64,000 nucleotides of DNA from Candidatus Hydrogenedentota bacterium (GTDB lineage: Bacteria > Hydrogenedentota > Hydrogenedentia > Hydrogenedentales > JAEUWI01). How positions within the stretch are numbered: position 1 is the stretch's first letter; every line of letters starts with the position of its first letter. A model generated the notes under the pieces. That model did not search any database and was not told the DNA's origin. It worked only from the letters and a program-made list of their open reading frames with translations. A program made the translations under genes and the position numbers. The DNA lies in the NCBI GenBank assembly GCA_034669905.1, contig JAXMOL010000002.1, positions 189,248 to 253,247 of the forward strand, written 5' to 3'. Below, piece after piece: positions 29,052 to 42,037 of the stretch.

Positions 29052-29645
29052 ATGAGCGAATACGTCCCACGCATTCTCGCCTTCGCCGGCAGCACCCGTA
29101 GCGATTCCTACAATAAGAAGCTGGCCGCCGCCGCGGCAGAGGCCGCCCGGGCTGCCGGAGCCGACGTGACCCTCGTCGACCTTCGTGACTACCCCATGCC
29201 CTTATTTGATGAAGATCTTGAATCGGCAGAAGGGCTTCCCGAAAGTGCGGTCAAGCTACGGGAATTGTTCCTGCGTCATGACGGACTGATCATCGCCTCA
29301 CCGGAATACAACGGTTCCCTGAGCGCGGTGTTGAAAAACACCATTGACTGGCTGAGCCGTCGCCAGGGCGATGAAACACCGCTCATCTGCTTCCGCGAAA
29401 AGGTGGCCTTACTCCTCGCCGCTTCCCCCGGTGGCCTCGGCGGCCTCCGTGCCTTGCGACACCTCAACACCATCCTCCACGGGATTCAGGTCATCGTGCT
29501 CCCCGAACAGAAGGCCATTCCTGCGGCCCACAAGGTCTTCGACGACACGGGCATCGCCGATGCCAAAGTGGCGAAATCCGTCGCCGATCTCAGCACCCGG
29601 CTCGTTGAAATGACCACGCGCATCCACCAGAAAAACAACGGCTAA
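29052..29645 (+). CDS. NADPH-dependent FMN reductase
   Basis: GSTRSDSYN, SPEYNGS..LKNTIDWLSR, SPGGLGG. Confidence 0.93.
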   Translation: MSEYVPRILAFAGSTRSDSYNKKLAAAAAEAARAAGADVTLVDLRDYPMPLFDEDLESAEGLPESAVKLRELFLRHDGLIIASPEYNGSLSAVLKNTIDWLSRRQGDETPLICFREKVALLLAASPGGLGGLRALRHLNTILHGIQVIVLPEQKAIPAAHKVFDDTGIADAKVAKSVADLSTRLVEMTTRIHQKNNG

Positions 29646-29669
29646 AGTCCAACCGCCCCCTGCCGATAA
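29643..29669 (+). promoter_or_regulatory. Sigma28 (FliA) promoter P1
   Basis: TAAA-N15-GCCGATAA, exact consensus. Confidence 0.88.
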
Positions 29670-29676
29670 GTAAAGC

Positions 29677-29849
29677 ACAGGCCAAGACACGGAAGTCGCG
29701 GCGACGAATTGACACGGAGGTCAACGGAGGTGGCGAAAGAGACTAGATGAACCGTCGGGTGTCATCCCAACACCAACGCGATCGACGTTTTGTCCCACAG
29801 TCTTTCCATCCATGAGAGGCGCCATAGCACACGCTGTTGTGGCGTTTTT
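29677..29849 (+). ncRNA. Candidate sigma28-dependent sRNA-1 (CsrA hairpins; antisense to flagellin-2 initiation region)
   Basis: Promoter, GAC-ACGGAN-GTC hairpins, 26 of 29 nt complementary to 32921-32949, terminator 29819-29849. Confidence 0.75.
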
Positions 29850-29945
29850 CTATTTTATCCGCCCTTTTTCCCGCGTACGCTGCCCCACGCCCCCCGACTT
29901 TTCGCCCACGCCCCAGCCGCCCATCCAACGCCGGCACATTTCCGC

Positions 29946-29972
29946 TAAAGGTTCTCGCTCCACCGCCGATAC
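29946..29972 (+). promoter_or_regulatory. Sigma28 promoter P2
   Basis: TAAA-N15-GCCGATAC. Confidence 0.85.
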
Positions 29973-29979
29973 TCTAATC

Positions 29980-30146
29980 ACAAGGCGACGACACGGAGGT
30001 CAACGCCGGCACGACACGGACGTCATTGCTACTTATCCTGGATACATACTCACAGGGTGGCCAATCCCACCACCTGCTATTGGGAGTGCCCCAGGGTCTT
30101 ACCTCTGAAACGCGTTGCGGTCTACACTGCAACGCGTTTCAAATTT
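29980..30146 (+). ncRNA. Candidate sigma28-dependent sRNA-2 (CsrA hairpins; antisense to flagellin-3 RBS)
   Basis: Promoter, two GAC-ACGGAN-GTC hairpins, GGGTCTTACCTC pairing with GAGGTAAGATCC, 15-bp terminal hairpin 30106-30141. Confidence 0.72.
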
Positions 30147-30179: not shown

Positions 30180-30206
30180 TAAAGTTTTCTGCGGCACCGC
30201 CGATAC
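30180..30206 (+). promoter_or_regulatory. Sigma28 promoter P3
   Basis: TAAA-N15-GCCGATAC. Confidence 0.85.
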
Positions 30207-30213
30207 CATCATA

Positions 30214-30342
30214 TTAAGAGACAGATTTAACGTGTTCTTCAAGGAACGCTGGGGTGTCTATCCCGCACCGTATTCCAGCCGTTAATCTCTGCTTCTTACC
30301 TCCCCTGGTTGCGTCATGGCATTGAACCATGGCGCATCTTTT
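30214..30342 (+). ncRNA. Candidate sigma28-dependent sRNA-3 (antisense to flagellin-3 RBS)
   Basis: Promoter, shared ATCCC-loop hairpin, TCTTACCTCC complementary to 33968-33977, terminator 30310-30342. Confidence 0.7.
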
Positions 30343-31426: not shown

Positions 31427-31453
31427 TAAAGTTGTCGCTCAAGTTGCCGATAA
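31427..31453 (+). promoter_or_regulatory. Sigma28 promoter of the flagellin operon
   Basis: TAAA-N15-GCCGATAA, exact, with A/T-rich UP element. Confidence 0.9.
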
Positions 31454-31459
31454 ATACTA

Positions 31460-31898
31460 CAGGTAAGCCGAAACAGGCCTTATTCAGGACAGTTTAAAAA
31501 AGTGAAATACGGAGTCCAGGGACGGGTTTCCGCGACATCATGGAGGATGGCGCATTCAGCGCGGGGTATGCACCCGCACGACGGCCTCGAGGCCGACGAC
31601 AACAATTGAATCACGTTGATCGAATACTTCGGTATGGATGAAGGCAGAGCAGGATGCTCAACGGCTTCATCAAGAAGAAACGTCGCAGTTAACGAATTGC
31701 CTGAAGCACGGGACATGCCTCAGGGATAACGGAGACTGCTTTCGAAATCAATGGGACCAATCGATTTCACGTAGAAATCGGTTTCTGACGCACCGGACCA
31801 TGGGACGGTAGCCGCCACACCGTGGTGGGTTACCCGGGATGGGACGTCAGAGGGAGCGCAAGGATGCGCTCTACCAACCACTCACGGAGGAATACATC
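31460..31898 (+). promoter_or_regulatory. ~440-nt flagellin leader rich in CsrA-type GGA sites
   Basis: 19 GGA trinucleotides counted by eye; hairpins GAGCAGGATGCTC and GAGCGCAAGGATGCGCTC. Confidence 0.7.
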
Positions 31899-32714
31899 AT
31901 GGGACTTCGAATCAACACCAATGTGTCTGCGCTCAACACGGCGCGGGTCTTACGTAGCTCAACGCTGGACTTGAACAAGAGCCTGCAACGGCTCTCCAGC
32001 GGATTGCGTATCAACCGTGCGGCCGATGACGCCGCAGGCCTGGCCATCGCCGAGGGTTTTCGCTCGGTGGTACGCGGCACGCAGGTTGCCCAGCGCAATG
32101 CGCAGGACGGAATCAGCCTGGTGCAGACGGCGGAAGGCGCATTGAGTGAAACGACCAACATACTGCAGCGTATTCGCGAGCTCGCCGTACAGGCAGCCAA
32201 CGGAACGCAGAGTACGGCAAACCGCGTATCGCTGGATGCCGAAGTCGATCAACTGTTAGCCCAAATCGATGATATCGCGTTTGACACGGAATTCAACGGT
32301 GTCCGGGTACTCAGCGGCGGCACTGTGCTGACGCTTCAAACCGGCGCTTTCCAGGGACAAAACCTGTCGATTGTGGTGGGTGCTGCGGGTCAGAACCAGA
32401 TCGGTGTTTCGCCGGTTAACCTGCAAACCGCTGCCGGTGCCATCAGTGCACTCAGTACGGTAGACGGTGCCCTGCGCTCGGTGAACACGCTCCGGAGTAA
32501 TCTGGGTGCCTTCCAGAACCGTCTGGAGTTCACCATCAGCACGCTCGCAATCCAGGAAGAAAACTCTTCCGCGTCCGAAAGCGCTATACGAGATGCCGAC
32601 ATCGCCCAGGAAACGATTCGCTTTACGCGGAATCAGATCCTGGTAAACGCCGGTACATCGATCCTGGCCCAGGCCAACATCGTGCCACAGACGGCACTGC
32701 AGTTGCTGGGTTAA
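31899..32714 (+). CDS. fliC: Flagellin 1 (271 aa)
   Basis: MGLRINTN, RLSSGLRINRAADDAAG, QRIRELAVQ, IRDADIA. Confidence 0.97.
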   Translation: MGLRINTNVSALNTARVLRSSTLDLNKSLQRLSSGLRINRAADDAAGLAIAEGFRSVVRGTQVAQRNAQDGISLVQTAEGALSETTNILQRIRELAVQAANGTQSTANRVSLDAEVDQLLAQIDDIAFDTEFNGVRVLSGGTVLTLQTGAFQGQNLSIVVGAAGQNQIGVSPVNLQTAAGAISALSTVDGALRSVNTLRSNLGAFQNRLEFTISTLAIQEENSSASESAIRDADIAQETIRFTRNQILVNAGTSILAQANIVPQTALQLLG

Positions 32715-32942
32715 TACACGTCGACAACCAGGGCGGCCGAACCTCAAGGGATACGAGGGGCCGGAAACGGAATTTATGGCCACCGGCCGCCCTGATAATC
32801 TTCAACGTAGAGAAAGGAGAACATAGGACTGCGAGTACTTAACGAGTCGCGTCGTTGAGCATTCGGTTTTTGTCAACTATCACGGAAGAATGAATAACAA
32901 AGGGATCGGGAATCCCTTTGGCCACTCATGGAGGAAAGTACT

Positions 32943-33761
32943 ATGGGACTTCGAATCAACACCAACGTGGCGTCGCTTAACTCGGCGCGTACCCTGAGCC
33001 GCTCTACGAGCGCGCTTAACAAATCGCTGGAACGTCTCTCCAGTGGTCTCCGCATCAACCGCGCAGCCGATGACGCTGCCGGTCTGGCCATCGCCGAAGG
33101 ATTTCGGTCGGTGGTGCGGGGCACCCAGGTCGCCCAGCGCAACGCACAAGATGGGGTCAGCCTCGTGCAAACCGCGGAAGGGGCGTTGAGTGAAACCACC
33201 AACATCCTGCAGCGGGTACGCGAACTGGCCGTACAGGCCGCGAACGGAACGCAGAGCTCTGAAAACCGTGCGGCCCTGAACACCGAAGTATCGCAGCTGC
33301 TCGCACAGATCGATGATATCGCCTTCGACACCGAATTCAACGGTGTGGCGGTATTGAGCGGCAGCAGCACCCTCACCTTGCAAACCGGCGCCGAATCGGG
33401 TCAGACCCTGCAGATTGCTATCAGCAGTGGTGCGGGCCAGGCCGCCATCGGCGTGAGCACCGTCAACATTTCCACCTCGGCCGGCGCCGTCAGTGCCCTC
33501 AGCCAGGTGGACGTAGCCCTGCAGCGGGTCAATTCCCTCCGCAGTAACCTCGGTGCCATCCAGAATCGTCTCGAATTCACCATCAATACCCTGGCGATTC
33601 AGGAAGAAAACTCGGCCGCCTCAGAGAGTGCGATCCGGGATGCGGACATTGCCCGCGAAACCATTCAGTTTACGCGGAACCAGATTCTGGTCAGTGCCGG
33701 CACGTCGGTACTTGCCCAGTCCAATGTGGTTCCCCAGACGGCGTTGCAGCTTCTCGGCTAA
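32943..33761 (+). CDS. fliC: Flagellin 2 (272 aa)
   Basis: Same N- and C-terminal flagellin motifs. Confidence 0.97.
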   Translation: MGLRINTNVASLNSARTLSRSTSALNKSLERLSSGLRINRAADDAAGLAIAEGFRSVVRGTQVAQRNAQDGVSLVQTAEGALSETTNILQRVRELAVQAANGTQSSENRAALNTEVSQLLAQIDDIAFDTEFNGVAVLSGSSTLTLQTGAESGQTLQIAISSGAGQAAIGVSTVNISTSAGAVSALSQVDVALQRVNSLRSNLGAIQNRLEFTINTLAIQEENSAASESAIRDADIARETIQFTRNQILVSAGTSVLAQSNVVPQTALQLLG

Positions 33762-33980
33762 TTCGCCATCCATAGTTTAAACCGGTTGTAACGTGGTGGC
33801 TCCGGCCCTTCCTTTGGAGGGGTCGGAGCAGCACCGTAACTATACGGAAGGAGTGCATCAGTCGGCCGATTTGCCGTCCATTTACCCACCGCGGGGATAA
33901 ATAGACGATGAGAAGGCCACGAAGAACATACACCGGGTTGGTTAGGGATACCCGACCGGGTGATCTTGGAGGTAAGATCC

Positions 33981-34799
33981 ATGGGATTACGTATAAATAC
34001 GAACATCCCGGCTCTCAACACGAGCCGGGTGCTCGATCGTTCCAGCCGTGCCTTGAACCGCAGTCTGGAACGGTTGAGCAGTGGTCTCCGCATCAATCGC
34101 GCAGCCGATGATGCGGCAGGCCTCGCTATTGCCGAGGGCTTTCGCACCCAGGTGCGGGGCACCCAGGTGGCGCAACGCAATGCGCAGGATGGAATCAGTC
34201 TCGTACAGACGGCCGAAGGGGCGTTGAGCGAAACGACCAACATCCTGCAACGCATTCGAGAACTCGCGATTCAGGCCGCCAACGGAACCCAGAGTTCCGC
34301 CAACCGCCAGTCACTCAACAACGAAGTGCAGCAGCTGATTGCCCAGGTGGAAGACATCGCTTTGGACACTCGGTTTAATGGCATCAACGTGTTGAGCAGC
34401 AACCAGTCCATCACGCTCCAGACCGGAGCCAATCCGAGCCAATCCCTTCAGGTGACCATCGGCGGCGCACGCAGCACCGATCTGCGCGTAAGCGCCGTCA
34501 ATATTTCGGCCGCGGCAGGCGCTATCAATGCCATCAGCCAGGTCGATATCGCGCTGGCAAGTGTGAACACCTTACGGAGCAGTCTCGGTGCCTTTCAGAA
34601 CCGGTTAGAATTCACCATCAATACCCTGGCCATTCAGGAAGAGAATTCGGCGGCCGCCGAAAGTGCTATCCGGGATGCCGACATTGCCCGGGAAACGATT
34701 CAGTTTACACGGAATCAGATCCTCGTGAATGCCGGTGTCAGTGTATTGACCCAGGCCAACGTGACCCCCCAGGCGGCGCTCACGTTGTTGAGCACATAA
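33981..34799 (+). CDS. fliC: Flagellin 3 (272 aa)
   Basis: Same N- and C-terminal flagellin motifs. Confidence 0.97.
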   Translation: MGLRINTNIPALNTSRVLDRSSRALNRSLERLSSGLRINRAADDAAGLAIAEGFRTQVRGTQVAQRNAQDGISLVQTAEGALSETTNILQRIRELAIQAANGTQSSANRQSLNNEVQQLIAQVEDIALDTRFNGINVLSSNQSITLQTGANPSQSLQVTIGGARSTDLRVSAVNISAAAGAINAISQVDIALASVNTLRSSLGAFQNRLEFTINTLAIQEENSAAAESAIRDADIARETIQFTRNQILVNAGVSVLTQANVTPQAALTLLST

Positions 34800-40547: not shown

Positions 40548-40624
40548 GGCGGTGTAGCTCAGTTGGTTAGAGCATCGGAATCATAATCCGAGTGTCCGCG
40601 GTTCGAATCCGTGCACCGCTACCA
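40548..40624 (+). tRNA. tRNA-Met (CAT), elongator type; island integration site
   Basis: GGCGGTG/CACCGCT acceptor stem, AGTTGGTTAG D loop, CAT anticodon, GTTCGAATCC, encoded CCA. Confidence 0.96.
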
Positions 40625-40634
40625 TAATAATATC

Positions 40635-40668
40635 AAGGACTTACGTCATATGGCGTAAGTCCTTTTTT
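40635..40668 (+). terminator. Intrinsic terminator after the tRNA
   Basis: AAGGACTTACG..CGTAAGTCCTT followed by TTTT. Confidence 0.88.
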
Positions 40669-40683
40669 GTGTCGAAACAGACC

Positions 40684-40742
40684 ATCTGTGCCAAATCTGT
40701 GCCAGTTGAGAAATCCGCGATAGTGGCACAGAAATGGCACAG
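40684..40742. repeat. Probable integrase arm-type sites
   Basis: ATCTGTGCCA twice as direct repeats, then TGGCACAG twice inverted; further TGGCACA near 40837. Confidence 0.75.
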
Positions 40743-40867
40743 GAATTTACATGACATAGTAACCACTTAGTAAACAGGGCTTATTCTATTGTCATTCATT
40801 CGGATTGGTTGTCTTTTGTAGTGGTTTGCCGTACACTGGCACAAAACCAACTACAAAAGGGAACATC

Positions 40868-42037
40868 ATGGCCTCAATTCAAGAGCGCATCGACCGAAAC
40901 GGAAAGCCCAGGTACACGGCCCGAATCCGCGTGAACGGTGAGAAACCACACACGGCAACGTTCAACACATTGACGGCGGCGAAGCAATGGGCGCAACGGA
41001 CGGAATCCGATTTGCGACGGGGGCGGCATTTGCCGGACGTGGAAGCCAAGCGCCGGACCTTGGCCGATGCCATTGACCGGTATGAGGAATCGCCGTCCTT
41101 TCGAAACAAGGCACCGGGCACGATTGCATCCCAGAACAAACACCTGACCCACTGGCGCGAAAGCTTGGGACACGTGACACTTTCGCACCTTACCCCTGCC
41201 ACGATTGGCGATGAGCGCGACCGAATAGCGCGGGGTGAGAACCGGAAGGCACCAAAACGGCATCGACCACGAAAAGGCAAGGTCGAAGCCAAGGATGAAA
41301 AATGCGATGCACTCAAGCCCCGGTCTCCGGCAACCGTGGTGCGCTATTTGGCGGCCCTGTCCGCCGTACTGAGCTATACGGTAAACGAATTGCGCTGGAT
41401 AGAGACCAACCCTATCGCGCGCGTATCCAAGCCCAAGGAACCGCGCGGGCGCGTACGCATTCTGGCGGATGAAGAGCGGGAAGCCCTACTCAATGCGTGC
41501 AAGGAATCTGACAATATCCATCTTTATGACATGGTAGCGCTTGCACTGTGTACGGCAGCGCGCAAGGGTGAGTTACGGAGCCTGCAATGGCGTCACGTGG
41601 ATTTTGACCAGCGACGTATCGTACTGGATAAGACGAAGAACGGCGACCGGCGCGTGATTCCGCTTCGGGGCGAAGCCGAGCGTATCCTAAAGGCGCGTTC
41701 CAAAATTCGACGAATTGATAACCCGTATGTATTCCCAGCCCCCTTCAAGCGCGGCAAGGTACCCGGCCCCGTGGACTTTACCCAAGCATGGTATGACGCC
41801 TTAGATGACGCGAACATAGAAGACTTTCGGTTTCACGACCTACGCCACAGCGCGGCATCCTATCTGGCGATGAATGGCGCAACACTGACCGAACTGGCGG
41901 AAGTCTTGGGACACCGGACATTACAAATGGTGAGACGCTATAGCCACCTTACAGAAGCGCATACGGGCGACCTACTAGAACGCATGAATGATTCCATCTT
42001 CAAAACGGAAGTCTTGAACCATGAAAAAAAAGCGTGA
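40868..42037 (+). CDS. int: Tyrosine integrase
   Basis: TAAR, KTKNG, FHDLRH, LGH, MVRRY catalytic set. Confidence 0.96.
   Translation: MASIQERIDRNGKPRYTARIRVNGEKPHTATFNTLTAAKQWAQRTESDLRRGRHLPDVEAKRRTLADAIDRYEESPSFRNKAPGTIASQNKHLTHWRESLGHVTLSHLTPATIGDERDRIARGENRKAPKRHRPRKGKVEAKDEKCDALKPRSPATVVRYLAALSAVLSYTVNELRWIETNPIARVSKPKEPRGRVRILADEEREALLNACKESDNIHLYDMVALALCTAARKGELRSLQWRHVDFDQRRIVLDKTKNGDRRVIPLRGEAERILKARSKIRRIDNPYVFPAPFKRGKVPGPVDFTQAWYDALDDANIEDFRFHDLRHSAASYLAMNGATLTELAEVLGHRTLQMVRRYSHLTEAHTGDLLERMNDSIFKTEVLNHEKKA

Follow-up and report, generated by a model that had tools for sequence, protein, structure and literature searches.

Can a small RNA single out one of several near-identical flagellins encoded in a row, and if so, how? 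The question is raised by sRNA-1, a non-coding RNA encoded in the 64,000-nucleotide stretch of Candidatus Hydrogenedentota DNA analysed here (the window). An earlier note, made from the letters alone, had proposed that a 29-nt segment of this RNA selectively represses translation of flagellin-2. sRNA-1 is a stand-alone gene, with an FMN-reductase-like gene on one side and truA on the other, and it has promoter and terminator motifs of its own. Its features, with predicted ends, are as follows.

29643..29668, + strand: sigma28 (FliA)-type promoter of sRNA-1, TAAAG-N15-GCCGATA, from the motif
29676..29856, + strand: sRNA-1, non-coding, about 177-181 nt, ends predicted
29681..29702, + strand: GGA hairpin 1, predicted CsrA site; 3 bp, 2x2 internal loop, 3 bp, ANGGAN hexaloop
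29709..29724, + strand: GGA hairpin 2, predicted CsrA site; two-sided change at 2/4 pairs
29758..29774, + strand: apical hairpin, loop CAUCCCA (29763-29769); stem 100% paired, two-sided change at 3/5 pairs
29775..29782, + strand: 8-nt side bulge with ACGCGA (29776-29781), unpaired, complementary to the flagellin-2 upstream loop
29792..29820, + strand: segment antisense to the flagellin-2 Shine-Dalgarno (SD) sequence and start codon, with exposed seed at 29807-29813
29814..29856, + strand: intrinsic terminator of sRNA-1; the antisense segment runs 7 nt into it

Both promoter boxes are kept, with a variable spacer, in 16/16 aligned homologues, and the same motif is found upstream of flagellins and of other flagellar-looking genes. 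We rejected the idea that sRNA-1 is a small-protein gene because its 17 homologues have neither a start codon nor an ORF length in common. Membership in a known RNA family was likewise rejected, as Rfam gave no match, including to the CsrB/CsrC/Rsm models. Two GGA hairpins come first at the 5' end, followed by a long stem that carries the apical UCCC loop and, on its side, the 8-nt bulge; the antisense segment and then the terminator complete the RNA. In the 17-homologue alignment, 91.3% of the cells pair in this fold and two-sided changes occur at 9/36 pairs, a level reached in 2/500 shuffles, while slid-structure controls are 30-49% paired; these statistics lean favourable, as the structure was drawn from the same sequences that were tested. 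Hairpin 1 is paired in 99% of the cells, with zero two-sided change. In the RNAalifold consensus the antisense segment is folded on itself, and the long stem mostly prevails when sequences are folded singly; either way the seed is left mostly unpaired.

The proposed target lies in an operon of three flagellin genes and flaG, for which the relevant features are these.

31427..31452, + strand: sigma28 promoter that lies 447 nt upstream of fla1 and serves the fla1-fla2-fla3-flaG operon
31899..32714, + strand: flagellin-1, 271 aa; leader with a GGA hairpin and CACGGAGG; poor sRNA-1 match
32838..32859, + strand: hairpin in the flagellin-2 leader; UCGCGU (32847-32852), the bulge target, is exposed in its loop, with unpaired probability 0.84
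32898..32920, + strand: GGGA-loop hairpin in the flagellin-2 leader; a predicted CsrA site that may also pair with the UCCC loop
32921..32949, + strand: main target site, around the translation start of flagellin-2 (CUCAUGGAGG; AUG at 32943)
32943..33761, + strand: flagellin-2, 272 aa
33952..33992, + strand: flagellin-3 start region, the best own target of sRNA-2 and sRNA-3
33981..34799, + strand: flagellin-3, 272 aa

The window holds four sigma28-type promoters (at 29643, 29946, 30180 and 31427), and the source genome, which is 96% complete, encodes five flagellins. In the genomes fetched, the sigma28 motif is absent from 75/75 short spacers between tandem flagellins; such flagellins are therefore likely to share one transcript and could not be told apart by a promoter.

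Is the complementarity to flagellin-2 more than a chance resemblance? As the earlier note had described, positions 29792-29820 run antiparallel to 32921-32949 through 26 Watson-Crick pairs, with 2 mismatches and one bulge per strand, and both GGAGG and the AUG at 32943 lie inside the duplex. Because flagellin-2 starts at 32943, the duplex extends from -22 to +7. Its energy of -40.6 kcal/mol makes it the top non-self site within the 64-kb window and was reached by 0/5000 mononucleotide shuffles (mean -14.7, sd 3.2). When a 37-nt segment holding the 29-mer was compared with candidate starts genome-wide, flagellin-2 ranked 1 of 9,487 (z -5.1) and the other four flagellins ranked between 521 and 3126; all 9,487 candidates bear an SD-like word, which makes this a hard control. 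A chance or general anti-SD match was rejected on the strength of the shuffles and of this rank. Pairing with flagellin-1 is only partial (-26 vs -42), again in agreement with the note. Whole-RNA duplex energies were too noisy and were not used.

Nor is the segment permanently buried in the sRNA-1 fold, a danger that the earlier note had raised. It is partly buried: most of the 29-mer is paired within sRNA-1, in the RNA's own stem and in the terminator, and opening all 29 nt costs 15.2 kcal/mol, while CAUCCAU (29807-29813) is free (opening 0.7). With the opening of both RNAs charged, flagellin-2 reaches a net energy of -16.5 at best, against -6.4 for flagellin-1 and -6.7 for flagellin-3.

If the pairing is selected, sRNAs and targets should have changed together. 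At the SD site they have: the RNAs pair better with the flagellins of their own genome than with those of other genera. The test covered 97 RNAs whose genomes had two or more flagellins fetched; each RNA's best own target was placed, as a percentile, among the best targets that genomes of other genera offered it, one per genome. The median was 0.093, 49/97 RNAs lay at or below 0.1 and 26/28 genera averaged below 0.5, counts that overstate the independent events because the genomes are kin. We dropped the divergent fifth flagellin, which had been fetched for part of the genomes, together with one short form, two units duplicated in tandem, four promoter hits that were false or duplicate, and all exact duplicates; hand-anchoring at the terminator edge was applied to 18 units. 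Medians were 0.49 for the reversed segment, 0.41 for a coding-sequence target and 0.50 for another stretch of the RNA, and on these three controls we rejected an artefact of composition or kinship. An advance prediction was also borne out, in that two genomes with a deviant fla2 SD region (G030 and G036) bear the matching change in the RNA. The G030 RNA scores -41.2 with its own unusual leader and -23.4 with the source-genome leader, and the source-genome RNA scores -26.2 with the G030 leader. One RNA each in G040 (0.98), G016 (0.86) and G089 (0.86) prefers foreign leaders. Five held-out RNAs gave mixed percentiles of 0.02, 0.11, 0.27, 0.93 and 0.93 (with G018's third flagellin left out of the comparison), the 0.11 having been obtained after an automatically misplaced segment was re-anchored.

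We note some peculiarities of G030. In its second flagellin (L081), GAGGG replaces GGAGG, codon 2 is GGC and the 321-codon frame looks frameshifted; the leader is still matched by the sRNA of that genome. An identical sRNA-1 sequence occurs at two contig ends (L162 and L163), probably through assembly overlap.

The antisense segment is only one of the places at which the two RNAs fit each other. The UCGCGU hairpin loop sits 96 nt upstream of the flagellin-2 start and complements the ACGCGA bulge, which is invariant in 17/17 homologues of the first alignment. Across genomes, a complement of the bulge lies between -135 and -70 in 30/39 best-matched leaders vs 7/87 other own flagellins; for 9/39 bulge-bearing RNAs the loop is missing from the best-matched leader. 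The stems flanking the leader loop vary freely among genomes. The bulge and the loop have changed together, giving the pairs ACACGA/UCGUGU (G044), AUGCGG/CCGCAU (G085, G089 and G102, perhaps one event) and ACGUGC/GCACGU (G086), and ACGCGA fits none of five AUGCGG-type leaders. The two sites also agree on the partner: the flagellin chosen by the loop is the best SD match in 28/30 cases, with 8.7 expected by chance. The base that separates fla2 (CAUGG) from fla1 (CACGG) is Watson-Crick paired in 26/30 (U-A in 20, A-U in 5, C-G in 1), with a mismatch in 4. Opening costs 0.6 kcal/mol near the bulge and 1.1 kcal/mol at the apical loop, in windows one base off.

Thus, two covarying pairing sites, and possibly a third, lie in the flagellin-2 5' UTR. 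The possible third partner is the apical UCCC-type loop, present in 93/102 RNA units. It could pair with the GGGA leader loop or with an AUGGGA start, as both fit: leaders with GGGA loops are more often the best targets (42/94 vs 7/51), and codon 2 is GGA in 142/171 flagellins. UCCC loops that read G-rich sites are reminiscent of staphylococcal RNAIII and RsaE.

This geometry also bears on an explanation in which the partner is DNA. TldR-type repressors, which derive from dead TnpB and bind DNA, reportedly act on flagellin genes, and sRNA-1 could on that account be a guide that aims such a protein at one. The partners found here are loops of a folded mRNA 96 nt apart, paired through bulges and G-U pairs. 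The source genome (96% complete) has no PF07282 match and no TnpB-type gene stands beside sRNA-1; we rejected the guide reading, which is barely credible.

The source genome encodes four members of the family, three of them in tandem in the window and one on contig C63. Besides sRNA-1 these are:

29946..30146, + strand: sRNA-2, with a sigma28 promoter of its own; it has two GGA hairpins and a UCCC loop, and its antisense part is at 30085-30106
30180..30342, + strand: sRNA-3, with a sigma28 promoter of its own; it lacks the GGA module and has a UCCC loop, and its antisense part is at 30279-30312
G000:C63:15892-16067: sRNA-4 (L157), unselective, flagellin rank 205 of 9,487

The antisense parts of sRNA-2 and sRNA-3 both match flagellin-3 best, at ranks 166 and 17 of 9,487, so a flagellin stands at rank 1 for none of the three further members. 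The terminator loop of sRNA-4 carries GAGUCCCAUU, complementary to an AUGGGAC flagellin start, as it does in several orthologues.

These modest ranks are where one could argue that the RNAs are CsrA decoys and nothing else, their antisense parts being a roleless relic of an inverted leader duplication or a general anti-SD sequence: C/U-rich anti-SD stretches pair with many starts, and sRNA-2 and sRNA-4 rank flagellins merely 166 and 205. For sRNA-1, flagellin-2 is rank 1 among SD-bearing starts, and two separate sites covary while the controls are flat. These results largely refute the decoy-only explanation, which we judge highly improbable. The note had also suggested that the segment arose as an inverted copy of a flagellin leader. 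Comparison across genomes shows that it is no recent copy, having been inherited across the order and having co-evolved with its target. The part that does resemble a flagellin leader in the sense direction is the 5' hairpin of sRNA-1. We hold with little doubt that the pairing between sRNA-1 and flagellin-2 is real and selected, and selective targeting of this paralogue, as first proposed in the note, finds support in the genome-wide rank, the accessibility-corrected energies and the covariation with its controls.

How widespread is the family? A covariance model (R1) found it in 99/135 Hydrogenedentota genomes, 105/135 of which encode Flagellin_N. RNA and flagellin occur together in 98 genomes, flagellin only in 7, RNA only in 1 (80% complete) and neither in 29; put differently, the family is present in 98/105 genomes with flagellin vs 1/30 without. 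The flagellin-free genomes mostly belong to one family (21 of its 23), and therefore represent few independent losses. Of the seven flagellin-only genomes, a looser search of five detected a member without the GGA module in G091 and a short GGA-plus-terminator unit in G041, and no unit in G110, G119 or G042. A scan for the sequence pattern returned 44 loci, 14 with strong R1 hits. Outside the phylum, 5 single genomes gave no R1 hit, and neither did two samples of 121 genomes drawn from the phyla to which a Planctomycetaceae and a Spirochaetota record belong.

Several members depart from the common build. In five genomes of family f13 there are short forms in which the GGA hairpins stand alone. 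These (L171 and L229-L232) and the G041 unit (L223) are short sigma28 units made of GGA hairpins and a terminator, the loop of which holds a third GGA in some of them; they are candidate pure CsrA decoys. In L208, L209 and L244 the GGA module is doubled, giving four hairpins, and in L206 the apical loop is duplicated. The GGA module is missing from 11/102 units, the sRNA-3-type members, which have the pairing module only.

What, then, is the 5' module for? The GGA loops of sRNA-1 fit the CsrA SELEX consensus RUACARGGAUGU as quoted in PMC7652899, and we are fairly confident in predicting that CsrA binds the 5' hairpins. Two GGA hairpins are few for a sponge. The build of hairpin 1 recurs in 73/102 RNA units and in 23/171 flagellin leaders; all 23 of these leaders have their own nearby sigma28 motif, and in 20/23 codon 2 is GGU, not GGA. 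The leader hairpin of the source genome's stand-alone flagellin shares this build, so that the module looks like a mimic of that leader. The stand-alone flagellin itself is poorly matched by the antisense parts. In the flagellin-2 leader, both the SD-overlapping site and the GGGA hairpin are predicted CsrA sites.

A module of this kind invites the converse arrow of regulation, namely that the RNA serves chiefly as a decoy for CsrA and is antagonised by the fla2 mRNA: pairing would break down or refold the decoy, so that the level of flagellin mRNA would feed back on free CsrA. The same complementarity and covariation would be expected, and GGA-only forms persist in one family and another order, which implies that the GGA module can stand alone. 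The sRNA-3-type members, however, have the pairing module without the GGA module, and pairing at the SD would affect the mRNA regardless; we consider this reversed direction quite unlikely.

The source genome encodes fliA, and its csrA adjoins fliW. It has no match to Hfq (PF17209) and, at 96% completeness, none to ProQ (PF04352). RNA-library contigs of relatives, mostly 85-95% alike and from four runs of three studies, cover the RNA cluster and the flagellin operon. In three runs the operon contigs begin at 31468-31479, not far from the predicted start; another contig starts at 29684. These contigs are unstranded, lack defined ends and are possibly DNA, and some run into the end of the upstream gene, so they give a weak hint of expression; parts of the window without contig cover were excluded from the evidence.

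The operon and its surroundings show further features that we record in passing. The stand-alone flagellin (G000:C15:21889-22815) differs from those of the operon: a sigma28 promoter of its own precedes it, its leader is short and its codon 2 is GGU. The flagellin-1 leader (31458-31898, 440 nt) contains many GGA motifs and hairpins and may itself titrate CsrA; a match to RsmY within it is weak (31638-31768, E 0.57). An SD-like A(A/G)GGAG without a start codon occurs far upstream of fla2- and fla3-type genes (32812-32819 and 33843-33853 in the window) and in 47/62 spacers, mostly near -130; it might serve for ribosome standby, for CsrA binding or for processing. Such a motif might also stabilise a 5' end, an idea weakened here by the lack of an RNase J above the cut-off. 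Strong GC-rich hairpins without U-tracts lie directly 3' of the fla1 and fla2 stops (32730-32794 and 33790-33830) and are kept in relatives with altered sequence; they may protect mRNA segments after cleavage. A tRNA followed by an integrase-like 410-aa ORF, labelled from its translation, lies at 40548-42037, which is likely the start of an integrated element.

By sequence comparison, then, the promoter motif, the fold, both complementarities, the covariation, the paralogue preference and the co-occurrence with flagellin are established. The antisense pairing is the part of this that the earlier note already contained; it had nothing on the loop site that covaries, on the 5' module of CsrA type or on paralogous RNAs directed at other flagellins. 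The reading that we favour, and think probable, is that sRNA-1 docks on the flagellin-2 leader by the loop-bulge contact, pairs over the SD and start codon and represses, its GGA hairpins being predicted to be bound by CsrA. sigma28 would turn on the RNAs together with the fla1-fla2-fla3 operon. The ACGCGA bulge would contact the UCGCGU loop at -96, serving as the paralogue address without Hfq, and the free CAUCCAU seed would pair with AUGGA at the SD and unzip the RNA's own stem. Ribosome entry at fla2 would be blocked, which would uncouple cistrons that share one promoter, and sRNA-2 and sRNA-3 would act likewise on fla3. The 5' hairpins would titrate CsrA and thereby favour fla1 and the stand-alone flagellin, both poorly matched by the antisense parts. 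The net result would be to set the ratio or the order of flagellins in the filament.

The sign of the regulation is the main doubt, repression of flagellin-2 being what coverage of the SD and AUG leads one to expect. The pairing could be real and its outcome something other than plain repression: CsrA might be displaced, or the cistron shielded and stored, such that fla2 is delayed, or is stabilised and made later. The predicted CsrA sites at the SD and in the GGGA hairpin would suit such a role, pairing is often interrupted within GGAGG, and FlaX of V. parahaemolyticus is described as activating some flagellins (bioRxiv 10.64898/2026.08.28.747715). The duplex nevertheless spans SD, spacer and AUG together, and activation by FlaX opens an inhibitory structure, and no such structure is seen here. 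We therefore regard delay or storage as unlikely, and repression as the preferred outcome.

Among known systems, the nearest in mode of action is Vibrio FlaX (with Vcr077 and Vcr078), a trans-acting RNA with several sites in one flagellin 5' UTR, including the RBS (PMC11879080). FlaX is reported to have three sites in flaB, to have related sRNAs for other flagellins and to affect filament composition; RNase E cleaves it out of the flaA 3' UTR, it belongs to the sigma54 class and it is bound by ProQ, and the available portions of these sources give no sign of CsrA sites in it (PMC11879080; bioRxiv 10.64898/2026.08.28.747715). sRNA-1 resembles it in having multiple sites in one flagellin 5' UTR and paralogous RNAs for others. 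It differs in being a stand-alone sigma28 gene rather than a product of a flagellin 3' UTR, in having a host in which neither ProQ nor Hfq was found, and in combining a CsrA-type 5' module with a covarying loop-bulge address. McaS and GadY are Hfq-type enterobacterial RNAs. In E. coli these base-pairing sRNAs carry two or more GGA motifs and also bind CsrA (PMC7652899), and sRNA-1 similarly joins base pairing with predicted CsrA sites. Unlike sRNA-1, they are not sigma28 genes, are not directed against flagellin paralogues and act in a host without FliW; the lack of a PF17209 match likewise sets the sRNA-1 host apart from those of Hfq-dependent sRNAs such as McaS, FliX and MotR. With the CsrB/CsrC and RsmX/Y/Z sponges sRNA-1 shares ANGGA in short 5' hairpin loops and a 3' terminator, but it has two such hairpins instead of many, no Rfam match, an added antisense module and, unlike the CsrB/Rsm-type setting, a host with fliW. 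The review cited above reports that fliW is anti-correlated with activators of Csr sRNAs (PMC7652899). In Bacillus subtilis (CsrA-FliW-Hag) and C. jejuni (flaA), as in the sRNA-1 host, csrA is beside fliW and flagellin leaders carry a GGA hairpin and an SD-overlapping GGA site; the available parts of the sources describe no dedicated antagonist sRNA for that switch (PMC7652899; PMC11187230).

The sigma28-type promoter and the flagellar target are shared with E. coli UhpU, MotR, FliX and FlgO, which are sigma28-dependent and UTR-derived, two of them reportedly pairing within coding sequences (PMC10578931), and with C. jejuni FlmR/CJnc170, a 47-nt RNA with suggested action on class II genes including flaB (PMC11187230). 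The two-module build of sRNA-1 is found in none of these five. sRNA-1 thus works like FlaX and McaS, and is a member of neither group, nor of CsrB/Rsm. We found no description of the sRNA-1 family, nor of any regulatory RNA in the Hydrogenedentota phylum, in the literature searched; supplements of motif screens could hold one of the family. In B. subtilis, CsrA is described as promoting the pairing of SR1 with ahrC (PMC7652899), a precedent for CsrA on both an sRNA and its target, with RNAs and a pathway unrelated to sRNA-1. A more speculative extension, which we doubt, is an Hfq-free address code used phylum-wide, in which the bulge hexamer reads the leader loop and a CsrA dimer bridges the mimic hairpins to GGA sites of the mRNA. 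If so, CsrA would serve as a matchmaker; the FliW switch would then act as the gate for paralogue-specific silencing and would determine in what order flagellins enter the filament.

The sRNA-1 family is real, conserved and co-evolving, with a two-module design that is unusual among flagellin-targeting sRNAs and a FliW-type host. It offers a rare natural series of compensatory sRNA/target changes at two sites, the variants of which are ready-made swap controls. A 2020 review states that joint action of FliW and an sRNA on CsrA is undetermined in any species (PMC7652899); the family supplies defined RNAs, CsrA, FliW and targets with which to ask whether the two cooperate. For the organism itself, the findings suggest a way in which near-identical flagellins expressed from one promoter may reach different amounts.
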